From positions 1,696,001 through 1,760,000 of the forward strand of contig OZ244732.1 in assembly GCA_965219345.1 (NCBI GenBank): a stretch of DNA of 64,000 nucleotides. The letters run 5' to 3'. A model generated the notes under the pieces. It had not been told where the DNA came from and ran no database searches. It saw only the letters and a program-made list of their open reading frames with translations. Source of the stretch: Nitrosopumilus sp. (GTDB lineage: Archaea > Thermoproteota > Nitrososphaeria > Nitrososphaerales > Nitrosopumilaceae). Numbering within the stretch: position 1 is the first letter of the stretch; the number at the start of each line of letters is the position of its first letter. The position numbers were made by a program, and so were the translations under genes. Positions 31,493 to 37,073 of the stretch are shown piece after piece.

Positions 31493-31606
31493 TTTTGGCC
31501 TAAATAACTTGTTCGCATTTTATTGGATTATTTTGTCAAACTTGTGATCATTAGGTTTGAAATATCGTCATGACTCTGAATACATAAGTTTTCATCTGAG
31601 GTTATC

Positions 31607-32678
31607 TGTGTCTATTGTACGGAAATTATGTCGCGCGCCAAGAGTCCGGCGTACTGCCCAAGAGTATTTTACACTACACAAGTCCAGGCACCCCATGCCA
31701 ATACGCCTGACCGACAAGGCCATCCGATACGCCGTCAGGCAGCTGGAGAAGGGCAAAGACACCAAGACGGTCGCAGAAGAGATCAACGTCACCCAGAGGC
31801 ATGTGCAGCGGCTGTGGGCCGAATTCAACAGGACCGGTTCGATCCACGTCCAGCAGCCTGCAGGACGGCCGGCAGATCTCCCACCGCCCGACGAGGAAAC
31901 CAATATGGTATTAGACGTTCACGGACGCAAGCCGGAGGGTGTGCTACGGACAGCCAAGAGGCTTCGGAAGGAGGGACACGATATAAGCTACTCCCGCGTA
32001 TACCAGATAATGAAGTCCAACGGCCTAGTCATCGACTCCCCGGCAAAGTCGAGGAAGCGCAAGTGGGTCAGGTACGAGCGCCTGTACTCGAATGCCATGT
32101 GGCATACTGACTGGCATGTGATGAAGGATCCGCGCATGAAGGATCTGAACCTGATCACGTATCTTGATGATGCCTCCAGGTGCGTTACGGGCGCGGCATT
32201 GTTCAAGGAGGCCACCTCAGAGAACGCGGTGGCGGTGCTCCGGCAGGCAGTCGGCAGGTTCGACGTGCCGGCGACCATCCTGTCCGACAACGGCTCGTGC
32301 TTCGTCGGCAGGGGCGGCCGCAAGAGGCAGACAGGCACCTGGACTCCGACCCTCTTTGAGAACGAGCTGCTGGACCACAACATAGGGCTGATCAATTCAA
32401 GACCGTATCACCCGCAGACCAACGGAAAACTGGAGAGGTTCCACAGGAGCATCGAGGAGGAAATATGGCACTATGACGGGCTGGACGACTATGTCGAGTA
32501 CTACAACACGGACAGGCTGCACTTTTCACTGGACATCGACAACTACGAGACGCCGCTGATGGCGTTCCGCAACAAGAGGGCTACCGACGAGATAAGACAG
32601 CAGAATTCCAGATGGATGGAGGCAGATATCAATGACTGACGACCCAGACAGGGGGCGACATGATTTTCATATATTACA
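31607..32678 (+). mobile_element. IS481-family insertion sequence (ends approximate)
   Basis: Abrupt high-GC block; imperfect inverted ends ..GAAATTATGTCGC / GCGACATGATTTTCATATATTACA. Confidence 0.75.
31695..32639 (+). CDS. IS481-family (rve) DDE transposase
   Basis: MWHTDW, YLDDASR, ILSDNG, HPQTNGKLERFH; start taken at MPIRLT. Confidence 0.9.
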   Translation: MPIRLTDKAIRYAVRQLEKGKDTKTVAEEINVTQRHVQRLWAEFNRTGSIHVQQPAGRPADLPPPDEETNMVLDVHGRKPEGVLRTAKRLRKEGHDISYSRVYQIMKSNGLVIDSPAKSRKRKWVRYERLYSNAMWHTDWHVMKDPRMKDLNLITYLDDASRCVTGAALFKEATSENAVAVLRQAVGRFDVPATILSDNGSCFVGRGGRKRQTGTWTPTLFENELLDHNIGLINSRPYHPQTNGKLERFHRSIEEEIWHYDGLDDYVEYYNTDRLHFSLDIDNYETPLMAFRNKRATDEIRQQNSRWMEADIND

Positions 32679-32886: not shown

Positions 32887-33069
32887 TCACAGAGTGTTTT
32901 CCAAATCTTCTTTTGTTGTCTTTTTATCCTTGTCTGTGATTTTAATTGAGCCCTTTGGCTCAATCATGTAGGCCAGTGGATTTTCGTCACAATCATACAA
33001 TTCCAAAACATCTGAATCTTTGGACTCCATGTATTTTATATGGTTATTCTCCGTTAAATTGGTTTTCAT
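32887..33069 (-). CDS. Hypothetical protein or fragment
   Basis: 60-aa ORF only. Confidence 0.3.
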   Translation of the reverse strand: MKTNLTENNHIKYMESKDSDVLELYDCDENPLAYMIEPKGSIKITDKDKKTTKEDLENTL

Positions 33070-33154
33070 ATCAGGTTCTGCTAACTTGTCGAGACCCGGA
33101 ATGTGGATCTTCTCTGAAATGTTATGAGAATCAATGCCTAATGAGAGATATGAT

Positions 33155-33370
33155 TCAGACAGGCCAATTCAAGACATATTCGCTTATGTCTATGTCATTT
33201 TGCCTGCCGCATTTCAGGCGGTCTTTTTGGTCGTCAACATAGAGATCAACAGTGTTTTTTCCCTTGTTTTCTAGTATGAACTTGCGTAGAAAAGACGAGG
33301 GGATAATGTATGGCTTGGTTCTTTGTAGCAGGAGATACAGTTCATCATTTCCAGATTCGAACATTCTCAT
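33155..33370 (-). CDS. Hypothetical protein, possibly a truncated C-terminal fragment
   Basis: 71-aa ORF downstream of the MTase, beside a mini-element. Confidence 0.4.
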   Translation of the reverse strand: MRMFESGNDELYLLLQRTKPYIIPSSFLRKFILENKGKNTVDLYVDDQKDRLKCGRQNDIDISEYVLNWPV

Positions 33371-33399
33371 AAGATCGTCACGTGCCGTTATCTACCATC

Positions 33400-33479
33400 G
33401 GTACTGTTAACTTTTGAGGATCCGAGATGCCAAATTGAGCGTGTCATCTGGCAAAAGACTCTCTATTGTTAACAGTACC
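33400..33479. mobile_element. 80-bp mini-element bounded by IS6-type inverted repeats
   Basis: GGTACTGTTAAC...GTTAACAGTACC; no target duplication seen. Confidence 0.5.
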
Positions 33480-34269
33480 GCACCTGCTGCACAGAACTGA
33501 CTCTTTTTCTAGCTATCTTGGCATACTGGGATGACACATCGCATCCGATAAATTCTCTGCCGTGTATAGCAGCCATCTTGCATGTGGTTCCGGAACCACA
33601 CATGGGATCAAACACAAAATCTCCTTTATTACTCCATGACAAAATATGATCCTCTGCAAGTTTTTCTGGAAAAATGGCTGGATGCTCAAATGCATACCTG
33701 TCGTTTGTCGTTCCACTAACCCTACAGCATACTCCCAGATGTTGGTCTTTGTCTTGTATTCATTGAGCTTGGCCTTGACCTTGCGGTTTACTGCATCTGG
33801 CCCCTTGTTGTATACCACGCCTTCCACGCCATTCCTAACAGTTTTTTCCGTTAACGGGTTGAATGTCACCGGCTTTCCCTTTGCCAGAATAAACATGAAC
33901 TCGTAGCAGTTTGTGTATGCGTTGCTCCGCATGAACGGCGTGTTCTTCTTGCGGTAGATCATCACGTCGTGTATGGTGAACCCTATCTGTTTGAAATAAA
34001 GTGCCTGATCAAAGCTGGTGAGGCTACGACCGCCGTTAATCCTGTCGCCTACAACCCATATTACGATCCCCCCGAGTCACTTCATAGAGTGACTTGGCGG
34101 TATTCTCAAAATCAAAAACATAGCCTTCATAGTTTCTGAGATTGTCATACGGTGGAGATGTTACAGTAAGGTCAACAGAACCGGGCTTGATTCTGTCTCG
34201 CATGAACTTTACGCAGTCGGCAGTGTATATTTTGTTTTTTTCTGCATACTTAGTTTTTATGCGATTCAT
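33469..34269 (-). pseudogene. Beta-class N4/N6 DNA methyltransferase, two frameshifts
   Basis: VDLTVTSPPY, HPAIFPE, DPMCGSGTT across frames; shifts at G6 run (34068-34073) and ~33716. Confidence 0.88.
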
Positions 34270-34439
34270 TCCTTCTCGCCTGCGGTTACGAGTATCTTGT
34301 TCTTGGTTATAGTAAATTTCAGAGCAGAGGGCATCCCAAGTTTTTCTACTACTGGTTTTGGGATCTTGCAGCCATGCGTTCCGGCGGTGGGATTCAGCGA
34401 AACCACAAATTCTGTTGCGTCCTGTTTCCATTTTGGCAT
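34266..34439 (-). CDS. Small AbrB/MazE-like protein (57 aa, not in ORF track)
   Basis: MPKWKQDATEFVVSL...CKIPKPVVEKLGMPSALKFTITKNKILV; ATGA overlap with MTase start; paralog of 20740-20910. Confidence 0.75.
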   Translation of the reverse strand: MPKWKQDATEFVVSLNPTAGTHGCKIPKPVVEKLGMPSALKFTITKNKILVTAGEKE

Positions 34440-34473
34440 TAGTGGGGATAGTAAACAGCCGTTAAATAAGTAT

Positions 34474-34525
34474 TACTGTATCAGTCTGATAATAGAAAGC
34501 ATTATATTATCAGACTGATATAGTA
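34474..34525. promoter_or_regulatory. 21-bp inverted repeat (1 mismatch) overlapping BRE/TATA of the tRNA-like gene
   Basis: TACTGTATCAGTCTGATAATA ... TATTATCAGACTGATATAGTA around GAAAGCATTATA. Confidence 0.65.
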
Positions 34526-34532
34526 TATGTAT

Positions 34533-34618
34533 GGCAGGATTGCTTAGCAAGGTTAAAGCGACAGATTCAGAATCTGTGTCTCTCGCCGAGATCGTGGGTT
34601 CAAGTCCCACTCCTGCCG
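34533..34618 (+). tRNA. tRNA-like gene, anticodon CAG (Leu codon CUG) with G73 and long variable arm
   Basis: GGCAGGA/TCCTGCC, GCTT/AAGC, ACAGA-TTCAGAA-TCTGT, TCTC/GAGA variable stem, GTGGG-TTCAAGT-CCCAC, G73. Confidence 0.88.
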
Positions 34619-34667
34619 CACATGTCATTTCTTTTCATTCTATATTAATTTTCGAGGGGAATTACGC

Positions 34668-35789
34668 ATGAATCCCAGACAACAGCGTGCAAAGACCATG
34701 ATGGAAACACAAGGCTACTGCTCCCAAATCAACCACGATTCCTTCAAGGTACGTTCCCAGACAAACCCAGAGAATCACTATATCGTATCAAAAACAGACA
34801 ACGGCCTTGTCTGTGAGTGTCCAGACCACGAGACACGAAACGCAGACTGCAAGCACATCAAGATTGTGCTGGATGTTATCAGGCGTAATGGCTGTTATCG
34901 TAACAACACTTTCCGCATCATGGAACGTGCCAAGCTGAGACTCTGCAAGTATTGCGATTCAGGCAACATCACCAAAAAGGGAACCAGAAAGACCAAGAAA
35001 GGTGATGTCCAGATATTCAAGTGCAAGGACTGCACGAGAAGATTTACAGCAAACTTTGGATTCAAGAAGATACGGTTTGATGAGAATGTGATTACCGGAG
35101 CCATGCAAATGTATTATTCGGGAATGTCTACCCGTGACATCGCAAACCACTACGAAATGATGGGAATTGACGTGTCCGATGTTGCAGTTTTCAAGTGGAT
35201 TGACAAGTATTCCAAAATGACAGCAAAGTACCTTAATGGAATCGTACCCAGAGTCGGCGGCTGGTTCCGTGCAGATGAGGTATGGGTGAAGATCAACGGG
35301 AAGCAATGCTATCTTTTTGCAAACATGGACGATGATACGAGATATTGGTTGGCTTCCGACCTAGCAGACAACAAGTTCCAGCACAATGCCAACAATCTAT
35401 TGAGAATGACAAAACAGCAGTCCGGCAAGTCACCACGAAACTTCATCACTGACGGGCTTCCGGCCTATGCCAAATCATCAAAGAGGGTGTTTGGCAAGAA
35501 AACCAACCACGTAAAGCACATCCACCTGGCAGGCAAAAGAGACAAGGACAACAATAACAAAATGGAGAGGTTGAACGGTGAGATTAGAGACCGTGAGAAG
35601 GTGTTTCGTGGTCTAAAGAAGATGGACACCGGAATACTTGACGGAATGCGAGTCTATTACAACTACACGAAAAAACACGGTGCATTGAAGGGTCAGACTC
35701 CGGCAGAGGCTTCAATGATTGAGGTTGATGGCATAAACAAATGGAAAACCATCATTCAGAATGCAAGTCTGAGTAAGGACTCTGAATAG
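34668..35789 (+). CDS. IS6-like DDE transposase with SWIM and Zn-ribbon domains (intact)
   Basis: CECPD...CKH, CKYC/CKDC, RADEVW, FITDGL, NNKMERLNGE; IS6-like end ..TACAGTACC at 35803-35811. Confidence 0.92.
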   Translation: MNPRQQRAKTMMETQGYCSQINHDSFKVRSQTNPENHYIVSKTDNGLVCECPDHETRNADCKHIKIVLDVIRRNGCYRNNTFRIMERAKLRLCKYCDSGNITKKGTRKTKKGDVQIFKCKDCTRRFTANFGFKKIRFDENVITGAMQMYYSGMSTRDIANHYEMMGIDVSDVAVFKWIDKYSKMTAKYLNGIVPRVGGWFRADEVWVKINGKQCYLFANMDDDTRYWLASDLADNKFQHNANNLLRMTKQQSGKSPRNFITDGLPAYAKSSKRVFGKKTNHVKHIHLAGKRDKDNNNKMERLNGEIRDREKVFRGLKKMDTGILDGMRVYYNYTKKHGALKGQTPAEASMIEVDGINKWKTIIQNASLSKDSE

Positions 35790-35861
35790 GCATAGTGTAA
35801 TATACAGTACCATACAGTATCATATTTTTCTTTTGCAATGGTTTTTTAACAGGTTGATGCA

Positions 35862-36257
35862 GTGTTATGTCATGAAAATACAGACGGTAAAAAAAGGATT
35901 TGGGAGACGCCAAGAAGGCGAAGATGTGATTGTATGCACGTATCCAAATGCCGACATTGCCGTGAAGGCGCTTTTGAAATCACTGGAAGATTGACATACA
36001 AGATATCACTCTCCCGCCTTTACAAAGAACAGATAGCACATATCAAAGAATTTGATACCATATTGAACTCAAGAAAAGTAGCACAAAATATCAAGAAAAC
36101 CGTCAAGGATTTGGAAAAAATGCAAAGATCAAGAATTGATATTGAGACTACTAGGATCAGGTCTCAGGTTGAAGGCACTTCCTATGTCGTTGTCTACAAA
36201 GTACAAAACAGCCCCAATCAAAAGCTAATTGCAAAAAGAATCATCAAGTGTAAATAA
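35862..36257 (+). CDS. Hypothetical protein
   Basis: 131-aa ORF, start uncertain. Confidence 0.4.
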   Translation: MLCHENTDGKKRIWETPRRRRCDCMHVSKCRHCREGAFEITGRLTYKISLSRLYKEQIAHIKEFDTILNSRKVAQNIKKTVKDLEKMQRSRIDIETTRIRSQVEGTSYVVVYKVQNSPNQKLIAKRIIKCK

Positions 36258-36317
36258 AACTAATGCCTCTATTCCAGAGAAGATTCACATTCCTGGTCTC
36301 GACAAGTTAGCAGAACC

Positions 36318-37073
36318 TCATATCAGAATCAAGATTCCCATTACAACTGGTATCAGATATCTTATTACATAACGAGCGCGTATGGATTGGTTGCTGGTCA
36401 GCTGGGGTAGCAACAATGATCCGCCTATGATAAACAATCCCATCTCTATCTGTTTGGCAAATATGCCTGTATCAGGAGGATTGCCCAGGTATATTCCATA
36501 TTTGAATATTAGAATAAGCGATGATATTACAATGAGTGTGTAAAGACCAAACTTTGTAGGGGCGGCAGAGGTGGAAGCAGGCTTGAACGAATATGAAATT
36601 TCAAAACTATTTTCGTGGCCGGATGTTATTCTAAACAAAGTAGAGTTGTATGTTTTGAATTTCTGTACATAACTTGGCTGTTGATGACTCTGCTCTACTT
36701 CATTGCCTTCAATTGTGCCATATTTTGTTTGTGCAAAATCAAATTCATTGGGTGTAAATAAAGTGCAATACAAAGGATAGGGCTGCTTTTTTATTGTCAT
36801 TTTCAAAACAGATTTTGAGTGTTTTGTGTGATGTGGGGAATAATTCAAGGTAAATGTTCGAATCTCGTTTTTATTCAATGCTTTGTTTTTTGGGATTTTA
36901 ATCCATATCATGTGTAATTTCTCCAAATCTATCTTCGAATGTAGTGTTTCCAGCTTTTCTCGTATCTCTCCAGAATCTGTGTTAATGAAATGTAAAATTA
37001 ATTTTTTAGCATCTTTTGTTGCCATTACTGGCAAAATAGAACCTTCCTCATCTTGAACTAGTAGGTTTGGCAA
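36318..37073 (-). CDS. Hypothetical protein with C-terminal TM helices (5' end possibly degraded)
   Basis: 251-aa ORF with three hydrophobic C-terminal segments. Confidence 0.6.
   Translation of the reverse strand: MPNLLVQDEEGSILPVMATKDAKKLILHFINTDSGEIREKLETLHSKIDLEKLHMIWIKIPKNKALNKNEIRTFTLNYSPHHTKHSKSVLKMTIKKQPYPLYCTLFTPNEFDFAQTKYGTIEGNEVEQSHQQPSYVQKFKTYNSTLFRITSGHENSFEISYSFKPASTSAAPTKFGLYTLIVISSLILIFKYGIYLGNPPDTGIFAKQIEMGLFIIGGSLLLPQLTSNQSIRARYVIRYLIPVVMGILILI

Follow-up and report, generated by a model that had tools for sequence, protein, structure and literature searches.

A transposon in Nitrosopumilus sp. carries, as internal cargo, a transfer RNA (tRNA) gene whose serine-type body disagrees with its CAG anticodon. 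The gene, tRNA(CAG), lies at positions 34533-34618 of the window, by which we mean the whole 64,000-nt stretch analysed (assembly GCA_965219345.1, contig OZ244732.1, positions 1,696,001 to 1,760,000 of the forward strand), and the element is a 3,244-bp member of the IS6 family of insertion sequences (IS) at window positions 33074-36317. The transposon tRNA(CAG) is real, conserved and mobile, and its decoding role is unproven. In the reading we prefer, to which we give about an even chance on the sequence evidence, it is a structurally intact class II cargo tRNA that would be transcribed and matured, would be charged by seryl-tRNA synthetase (SerRS) rather than by leucyl-tRNA synthetase (LeuRS), and would put some serine at CUG codons.

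The ends of the element and its transposase are the following:

33066-33073, no strand: left copy of the target-site duplication, TCATATCA, 8 bp, read directly

33074-33124, + strand: left terminal inverted repeat, beginning GGTTCTGCTAAC (repeat pair, alignment, nhmmer end profile E 3.6e-12)

34668-35789, + strand: intact IS6-family DDE transposase, 373 aa, with an N-terminal Cys/His-rich extension (Pfam DDE_Tnp_IS240, E 1.6e-14)

36267-36317, - strand: right terminal inverted repeat, beginning GGTTCTGCTAAC in reverse at 36317 (repeat pair, alignment, nhmmer E 1.7e-11)

36318-36325, no strand: right copy of the target-site duplication, TCATATCA, 8 bp, a perfect match to the left copy, read directly

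We call the tRNA transposon cargo because it lies between inverted ends that are flanked by an 8-bp target duplication, which passages of the IS6 review give as a mark of that family (Varani et al. 2021, PMC7986276). A 62-nt inverted repeat (33059-33120 and 36271-36332, 89% complementary) brackets the region, and the element ends themselves are about 50 bp long. That the tRNA sits inside such a bounded element had escaped the preliminary description. From left to right the interval 33074-36317 holds a broken methylase gene, a 57-aa open reading frame (ORF), a palindromic promoter, the tRNA, a spacer, the transposase and a 131-aa ORF.

The tRNA gene was recognised as follows:

34533-34618, + strand: class II tRNA, anticodon CAG, discriminator base G73 (ARAGORN, Rfam, cloverleaf, isotype models)

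ARAGORN called three tRNAs in the window, the one with anticodon CAG at 34533-34619 (+), and the interval 34533-34618 scored 57.5 bits against Rfam RF00005 (gathering score 29; E 8.5e-10). In the drawn cloverleaf the acceptor stem has 7 bp (GGCAGGA/UCCUGCC) and the D stem 4 bp, the anticodon stem has 5 bp (ACAGA/UCUGU) and closes the loop UUCAGAA with U33 and A37, and the variable arm follows directly with a 5-bp stem and the 5-nt loop UCGCC. A single unpaired C separates the variable arm from the T stem, which has 5 bp (GUGGG/CCCAC) and bears the T loop UUCAAGU. The base past the acceptor stem is G, hence G73, and is followed by CACA, so that CCA is not encoded in the genome. Folded tRNAs share a set of universal tertiary positions (U8, A14, G18G19, G26, U33, R37, U54U55C56, A58, G53:C61 and R15:Y48), and every one of them is present here. 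An intron as the source of the long arm was ruled out, the arm being a plain 5-bp hairpin free of bulges. The clean cloverleaf with long variable arm, UUCAAGU T loop and G73 that a preliminary description of this DNA had reported is thus borne out, as is its placing of the gene 49 nt before an intact transposase (ATG at 34668).

Further copies indicate how this gene has been kept. A second one in the host genome (C1:1220106-1220191) belongs to a sister transposon; it is 99% identical to the first, against 77% over 1,280 bp of neighbouring DNA, and it stands 49 nt before a transposase of 78% identity (C1:1218941-1220191). Three of 150 other species of the genus carry tRNA(CAG), which is intact in G152 (98% identical) and G143 (96%) and decayed in G139 (82%). 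The small-protein gene lies upstream of the tRNA in both G152 and G143. No IS6-type transposase was found downstream of the G152 copy, and in G143 (locus L153, G143:C1:613542-616625) the tRNA at 1499-1584 is followed by an ORF at 1634-2632 encoding an IS1595-family transposase (Pfam E 5.3e-33). Since small protein, promoter, tRNA(CAG) and spacer stand together before an IS1595-type gene there, this cassette is common to two transposase families. A contig in a sequencing run of another study matches window 34540-34620 with 0 differences and differs on both flanks; being a contig, it speaks to presence only.

Over the four intact copies, identity is 93-99% in the tRNA, 57-70% in the 60 nt before it and 61-94% in the 49 nt after it. 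Six substitutions separate the copies. Two of them make up the compensatory change of G2:C71 to A2:U71, one turns a variable-stem G.U into A-U, one replaces A37 by G, and two are purine changes in the T loop. All pairs survive, and 4/4 copies retain G73, U33 and a purine at 37. Judged from these alignments, tRNA(CAG) is kept almost unchanged while its flanks diverge, and the pattern bears signs of purifying selection on a transposon-borne tRNA. A functionless hitch-hiker, that is, a captured tRNA-Ser copy whose anticodon has drifted and which is heading to decay, would suit the decayed copy in G139, a 5'-truncated relative in G015, the neighbouring passenger methylase that is already broken, and the carriage by only 3/150 other species. 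We nevertheless consider it very improbable, given the contrast in identity between tRNA and flanks, the structure-neutral character of all six substitutions, one of them a compensatory double change, and the intactness of all universal tertiary positions.

Which amino acid such a tRNA would receive can be judged against the canonical tRNAs of the genus. The host genome (1.91 Mb, 36% G+C, archaeal amoA present) has a separate canonical tRNA-Leu(CAG) with A73 at C1:491458-491544, whose counterpart occurs in 5/5 relatives checked at 93-99% identity. The gene at 34533 is therefore an extra tRNA and not the cell's CUG reader, and the possibility that it is the only tRNA(CAG) of the genome, which the preliminary description had named as fatal to its interpretation, does not hold. 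One SerRS (C1:857621-858865) and one archaeal LeuRS (C1:152313-155138) were found in the host, with no dedicated paralogue. The 12 canonical Ser tRNAs compared all agree in three features: the discriminator is G73, the anticodon stem is followed at once by a variable stem of 5 bp, and a single unpaired base precedes the T stem. The 12 canonical Leu tRNAs all agree in others, namely A73, a variable stem of 3 bp whose loop has an invariant AG, and three unpaired bases; A53 and G54 are invariant in the canonical Leu alignment. The tRNA(CAG) shares all of the listed Ser features and none of the Leu ones, which agrees with the earlier assignment of G73 plus a long arm to serine and of A73 to leucine. 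Its T arm is identical to that of the canonical Leu tRNAs.

Isotype covariance models were built from these 12 canonical Leu and 12 canonical Ser tRNAs, and canonical tRNAs held out of the models served as controls:

canonical Leu L124: Leu model 110.4 bits, Ser model 63.5 bits

canonical Leu L053: Leu model 104.2 bits, Ser model 47.0 bits

canonical Ser L129: Leu model 50.2 bits, Ser model 88.7 bits

The Ser score exceeded the Leu score in 19/19 extra long-arm tRNAs, by margins of +6.4 to +36 bits. For tRNA(CAG) the Leu and Ser scores were 53.3 and 59.7 bits (+6.4), and for its second copy 56.2 and 62.7 bits (+6.5). Passages of a study of archaeal leucine identity place that identity in A73 and the variable region, name G73 of tRNA-Ser as an antideterminant for the LeuRS of H. 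volcanii, and describe G73 as a strong SerRS element (PMC9976931). Since tRNA(CAG) lacks A73 and the Leu-type arm and has G73 and the Ser-type long arm, it is more likely a substrate of SerRS than of LeuRS.

Several observations weigh against this assignment, and against serine insertion as its outcome. The two CAG copies have the smallest Ser-over-Leu margins in the family, and because their scores lie far below those of the held-out canonical tRNAs they are clear members of neither class; isotype scoring, which the preliminary description had suggested, therefore prefers serine, but only by 6.4 bits and below canonical level. The identity rules come from archaea outside the host phylum. Three further points of this kind concern genes around the tRNA: the CUG enrichment at hydrophobic-conserved columns described below, which would suit a leucine-inserting helper; the C/D-box-like RNAs that fill the same slot in sister elements, so that the role of the slot may not be decoding; and the proposed regulator, which has no recognisable DNA-binding family.

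The tRNA(CAG) does not stand alone. The genus holds at least 20 extra long-arm tRNAs, with G73 in 20/21 and with Leu, Phe, Ile or Arg anticodons, so that the family trait the preliminary description had suggested from two unrelated anticodons on Ser-like bodies is not only upheld but widened. Nine of these long-arm G73 tRNAs are in the host genome, with the anticodons UCU, UAU (two), GAU (two), CAG (two) and CCU (two). Four of the nine, namely both CAG genes and the CCU genes at C1:1235416 and window 22375, lie inside elements bounded by inverted repeats; of the others, one abuts a transposase fragment and the rest are 0.15-3 kb from a transposase or from end remnants. At 79 transposase loci of other genomes, ARAGORN found a long-arm tRNA with a non-Ser anticodon nearby in four (GAA, UAU, ACG and UAA, the last with A73), and at a fifth a canonical tRNA-Leu(CAG). 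A covariance-model scan of 41 genus genomes gave the host the most tRNA-like matches (46, vs 26-44 elsewhere), and seven extra candidates retrieved from it were five GAA, one GAU that stands 40 nt before a transposase, and one ordinary Ser.

Anticodons change on conserved bodies. A single body bears GAU in the host (C1:969888-969976) and GAA in four other species (G009 twice, G051, G057 and G049), always with G73 and a length of 83-89 nt (host and loci L123, L124, L125, L127 and L128), and the truncated relative in G015 has a GAA anticodon on a CAG-like body. When 13 extras and one host Ser tRNA were aligned, the long-arm cloverleaf was 96.1% paired and 24/26 pairs showed compensatory change, including 5/5 in the variable stem and 5/5 in the anticodon stem; none of 500 shuffles matched this covariation, and slid registers likewise came nowhere near. 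A metagenome scan with the D-arm pattern gave 14 loci, of which 13 were chance non-tRNA matches and one an unrelated tRNA-Ser(GCU), thus no new family member, and two scans of viral contigs, one for the CAG anticodon arm and one for the GAA/GAU body, found nothing.

Some other tRNA-like genes of the host were recorded alongside. Two short ones with 8-nt anticodon loops (C1:787949-788026 and C1:1438222-1438294; tcgt and tccg, ARAGORN) each lie less than 150 nt from a 3' fragment of the transposon's transposase family. The only tRNA(CAC) call (C1:1280474-1280567), 94 nt long with A73, has housekeeping genes as neighbours and reaches about 33 bits under either isotype model; we take it for a probable normal tRNA-Val with an unusual intron, outside the family. 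ARAGORN, run on the host genome with and without introns, reported no Arg(CCG), Glu(UUC), Leu(UAA), Pro(CGG), Trp or short-arm Arg(CCU), some of which may hold introns that it could not parse.

Codon use in the element bears on what a tRNA(CAG) could do there. In the two transposases adjacent to a tRNA(CAG), CUG makes up 4/17 and 7/22 of the Leu codons (11/39), against 6/74 in four other transposase copies and about 10% genome-wide. An alignment of these six transposases has 14 columns with CTG; the other sequences show Leu, Ile, Met, Phe and some further residues there, and Ser in just one cell. Since its CUG codons sit at columns conserved for Leu, Ile, Met or Phe, the element does not read CUG as serine by design, and the signature of a CUG-clade type of reassignment (CUG at Ser-conserved sites) was not seen in the six transposases, the only genes checked. 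Such numbers would fit a leucine-accepting helper that serves CUG-richer, GC-richer transposon genes in an AT-rich host, as phage tRNAs do. This explanation can also draw on the Leu score, just 6 bits under the Ser score, on the Leu-type T arm, and on the G37 of one tRNA(CAG) copy, G37 being usual for tRNAs that read CUN. We hold it to be improbable all the same. The CUG enrichment is confounded by G+C at third codon positions, which is 55-57% in the two adjacent transposases vs 36-44% in the others; G73 is present in 4/4 intact copies vs A73 in 12/12 canonical Leu tRNAs; the invariant AG loop and 3-bp stem of the Leu variable arm are missing; and relatives with the same body have G73 beside Phe and Ile anticodons, a combination that no cognate rule accounts for. 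The antideterminant action of G73 on an archaeal LeuRS, as given in the passages cited above (PMC9976931), argues in the same direction.

Around the tRNA we distinguish the following features:

34266-34439, - strand: ORF for a small protein of 57 aa, oriented away from the tRNA promoter; its position alone marks it as a candidate regulator

34474-34525, no strand: palindrome with 24-nt arms (34474-34497 and 34502-34525), 92% complementary and 4 nt apart (inverted-repeat search); candidate operator/promoter of the tRNA gene

34629-34636, + strand: oligo-T run TTTCTTTT 3' of the tRNA, found by reading; putative archaeal terminator or attenuator

34640-34667, + strand: conserved spacer TTCTATATTAATTTTCGAGGGG...ATG with a second TATA-like box (34643-34650) and a GAGG Shine-Dalgarno-like motif; putative role

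Within the palindrome a TATA-like box, TTATATTA at 34502-34509, lies 24-31 nt 5' of the first base of the tRNA. A TATA box overlapped by a 21-bp inverted repeat had been noted before; the overlap is confirmed, with arms that we measure at 24 nt. Upstream regions of the transposases come in three forms. The first has a repeat-flanked TATA box directly before the ATG, the second has a repeat-flanked TATA promoter followed by a C/D-box-like RNA and the conserved spacer (TTCTATATTAATTTTCGAGG..ATG), and the third is like the second with a tRNA in place of the C/D-like RNA. The spacer is conserved in copies that have a tRNA or a C/D-like RNA, including the one before the IS1595-type transposase. With its TATA-like box and GAGG motif ahead of the ATG, the transposase may have a transcript of its own or may be expressed by read-through from the tRNA promoter. 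The TATA box itself is common to sister copies and each copy has its own repeats around it, the pattern to be expected if operators co-evolve with a private regulator.

C/D-like RNAs with long terminal stems occupy the tRNA slot at C1:1035451-1035500 and C1:212636-212685 and in loci L043, L057, L064, L070, L051, L040 and L044 (in these other loci upstream of position 2501 or 1546). A strict C/D pattern was matched in 3/12 upstream regions and at three sites of the genome, two of the three in the transposon slot; the remaining C/D-like calls were made by eye. Six guides from three canonical modules (the two host loci and L043) had at least two mismatches to every rRNA and tRNA of the host, which leaves uncontradicted the earlier statement that the window has no matching C/D guide for tRNA(CAG). 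As a control, the D guide of the chromosomal C/D RNA at C1:447058-447104 matched the anticodon loop of tRNA-Leu(CAA) at 11/12 positions; this RNA is probably an ordinary guide for wobble-position methylation.

The small protein has eight homologues at the same place in other elements, conserved and 54-61 aa long. It gave no Pfam match even at E 10 and no PDB sequence match below E 0.89, and a large protein search returned only three unnamed homologues. No fold match of its model was significant (AlphaFold pLDDT 75; best Foldseek E 1.4; AbrB N-domain at rank 2 with E 2.2, MazE at rank 46), and hhalign against the MazE-like protein of a sister element gave a probability of 0.2; on these grounds we refrain from naming the protein AbrB-like. 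Small proteins at the same position in two sister elements do match Pfam MazE_antitoxin (E 3.7e-6 and 6.1e-5). Repressor control of the tRNA promoter is a reasonable inference, drawn from position only, with the small protein as the candidate regulator.

One sister element lies in the same window (20760-22510). It has an MTRWKKD-type small-protein gene (- strand, start near 20909), then a repeat-flanked TATA box, a C/D-box-like RNA at about 21007-21071 (C box AUAAUGA, two CUGA boxes, 7-bp terminal stem) and the conserved spacer. Its transposase (21119-22239) is frameshifted and 34-39% identical to that at 34668-35789; a long-arm G73 tRNA(CCU) follows at 22375-22455, and GCTAACAGAATC at 22499-22510 resembles the right end by eye. 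A pairing of the sister's D guide with the leader and start of tRNA(CCU), 10/12 by eye, was discarded as no better than chance.

That two kinds of small RNA share one slot raises the question of whether tRNA(CAG) needs to decode at all. It could instead be a tRNA-shaped RNA that serves the element as a processing or punctuation module, a promoter/attenuator cassette or a decoy, so that decoding would be irrelevant or minimal; the tRNA and the transposase message would then form one transcript of the regulated promoter, from which RNase P and tRNase Z (RNase Z) would excise the tRNA. We regard this as rather unlikely. It would explain why sister elements have a C/D-box-like RNA at the exact same place before the conserved spacer, and why, in another species, a transposase of the IS1595 family follows the same cassette. 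The GAGG motif 9-15 nt before the ATG fits as well, pointing to a leadered transposase message that would start upstream. Mukai et al., in passages of their report, suggest that most allo-tRNAs with anticodon UAU are unused in translation (PMC5389517). RNase P and RNase Z, however, need mainly the acceptor and T arms, yet the anticodon and variable stems covary at all five pairs each; 4/4 CAG copies retain U33 and a purine at 37, and 20/21 extras retain G73. Moreover, the small RNA is absent from most elements of the transposon family and is thus not needed for transposition.

The reading that we prefer, serine charging of an intact cargo tRNA, would involve the following steps. The tRNA(CAG) would be transcribed from its own TATA promoter, embedded in the copy-specific palindrome that is the probable operator of the divergently encoded small protein. 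Its transcript would be matured by RNase P and tRNase Z and receive CCA, and the single SerRS would be a likelier charging enzyme than LeuRS. Once serylated, the tRNA would place some serine at CUG codons in competition with the canonical tRNA-Leu(CAG), and this decoding may be a selected function or a by-product. Of the CUG-to-Ser miscoding tRNA under repressor control that the preliminary description had proposed, the Ser-like identity and the private regulated promoter are plausible, whereas miscoding is unproven. A bolder extension, which we put forward tentatively and consider rather doubtful, is a transposon-borne module for regulated mistranslation, the first in Archaea: SerRS-type tRNAs behind repressor-guarded private promoters, with anticodons switched to Leu, Phe, Ile or Arg, would insert serine upon de-repression, in a slot that is interchangeable with orphan C/D guides and spans unrelated transposase families.

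The remaining contents of the element are two passengers:

33469-34431, - strand: passenger DNA methyltransferase in at least three ORF pieces (34036-34431, 33513-33965 and 33469-33642)

35862-36257, + strand: passenger ORF, 131 aa, putatively coding (ORF list), with no Pfam match at E <= 0.01

The methylase piece at 33469-33642 matches Pfam N6_N4_Mtase (E 3e-13) at profile positions 178-220 of 221; a Pfam search with the pieces at 34036-34431 and 33513-33965 gave no match, and the former has an SPPY motif by eye. Full or partial copies of the transposase account for 39 tblastn rows in the host genome, and its closest named relatives are nearly all in Nitrosopumilus or Nitrosopumilaceae assemblies; we take the host for a Nitrosopumilus-like archaeon that oxidises ammonia. 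The profile of the element ends has 44 matches in the host genome at E <= 1. Target duplications of 7-8 bp were seen in 4/6 sister elements examined, whose passengers are mostly methylase or restriction-type genes. Left ends were sought up to 600 nt upstream of six transposase copies and none was found there; the true left ends are 1.6-3.3 kb upstream of the transposase, past the passenger genes. The full elements examined measure 2.8-4.6 kb and hold several passengers and small-RNA genes.

Outside the element, the transposon seems to have inserted into a minus-strand ORF, whose flanks are 36318-37073 (-) and 32887-33069 (-); the stop of the 251-aa ORF at 36318-37073 falls inside the right target duplication, and neither flanking ORF had a Pfam match. 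About 440 bp to the left of the transposon is an intact rve-type (integrase core) transposase (31557-32639) with G+C much above its surroundings. The window overall is rich in methylase and restriction-type genes.

Naturally occurring tRNAs in which body and anticodon disagree are rare and have so far come mainly from bacteria (allo-tRNAs), yeasts (the CUG clade) and nematodes. The present case is from Archaea, in one of the ocean's most abundant microbial groups, and the tRNA is physically part of a defined transposon whose cassette structure is clear. In the literature searched we found no account of archaeal long-arm tRNAs whose anticodons are mismatched, nor of IS6 elements with small-RNA cassettes. 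If tRNA(CAG) is charged with serine, mobile elements could spread conditional miscoding between genomes, and one tRNA, one SerRS and one candidate regulator would form a tractable system for asking why such tRNAs persist. Even if it does not decode, small-RNA cassettes (tRNA or C/D-like) before the transposases of two IS families would be a new feature of archaeal insertion sequences.

As a transposon, the element shares with the IS6 family, as passages of the review by Varani et al. describe it, the IS240-type DDE transposase, the terminal inverted repeats and the 8-bp duplication (PMC7986276). Typical members are given there as 700-890 bp long with one gene, and a single member with a passenger gene is listed (PMC7986276); elements of 2.8-4.6 kb are therefore atypical for the family. 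The one described here, at 3,244 bp, differs from a single-gene element of about 0.7-0.9 kb in that it also holds a tRNA, a small-protein gene, a methylase pseudogene and one more ORF. A survey of the thaumarchaeal mobilome describes IS-like transposons of one or two genes, and tRNA cargo is not mentioned in those passages (PMC6563490).

The closest known relatives of the transposon tRNA(CAG) are the bacterial allo-tRNAs. According to passages of Mukai et al. (2017, PMC5389517), these are Ser-type long-arm tRNAs with many non-Ser anticodons, UAU among the commonest; they are defined by an 8/4 or 9/3 geometry of acceptor and T stem and adjoin transposon-related and toxin-antitoxin genes, and some of them have been shown to insert serine in E. 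coli while others are thought to be unused in translation. Like them, tRNA(CAG) combines a Ser-type body with a non-Ser anticodon near mobile and toxin-antitoxin genes (the MazE_antitoxin matches of its sisters). Unlike them, it has a 7/5 geometry, is archaeal and is internal cargo of an IS6-type transposon. CUG-clade yeasts have a chromosomal tRNA-Ser(CAG) with a class II Ser-type body and G73, and show genome-wide reassignment or ambiguity of CUG. The likeness lies in a CAG anticodon on a serine-type class II G73 body that co-exists or competes with leucine decoding; the differences are that here the canonical tRNA-Leu(CAG) is kept, that CUG stands at Leu-conserved sites in the genes checked, and that the tRNA is mobile and rare. 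The nematode nev-tRNAs reported by Hamashima et al. are said to combine a long arm with Gly or Ile anticodons, and the synthetases of class II-arm tRNAs are predicted to charge them. They are likewise extra long-arm tRNAs, but eukaryotic and not known as transposon cargo. Phages and other mobile elements also carry tRNA genes, whose identity normally matches the anticodon. The transposon of Nitrosopumilus resembles them in being a mobile element with its own tRNA, and departs from them in that body and anticodon disagree.

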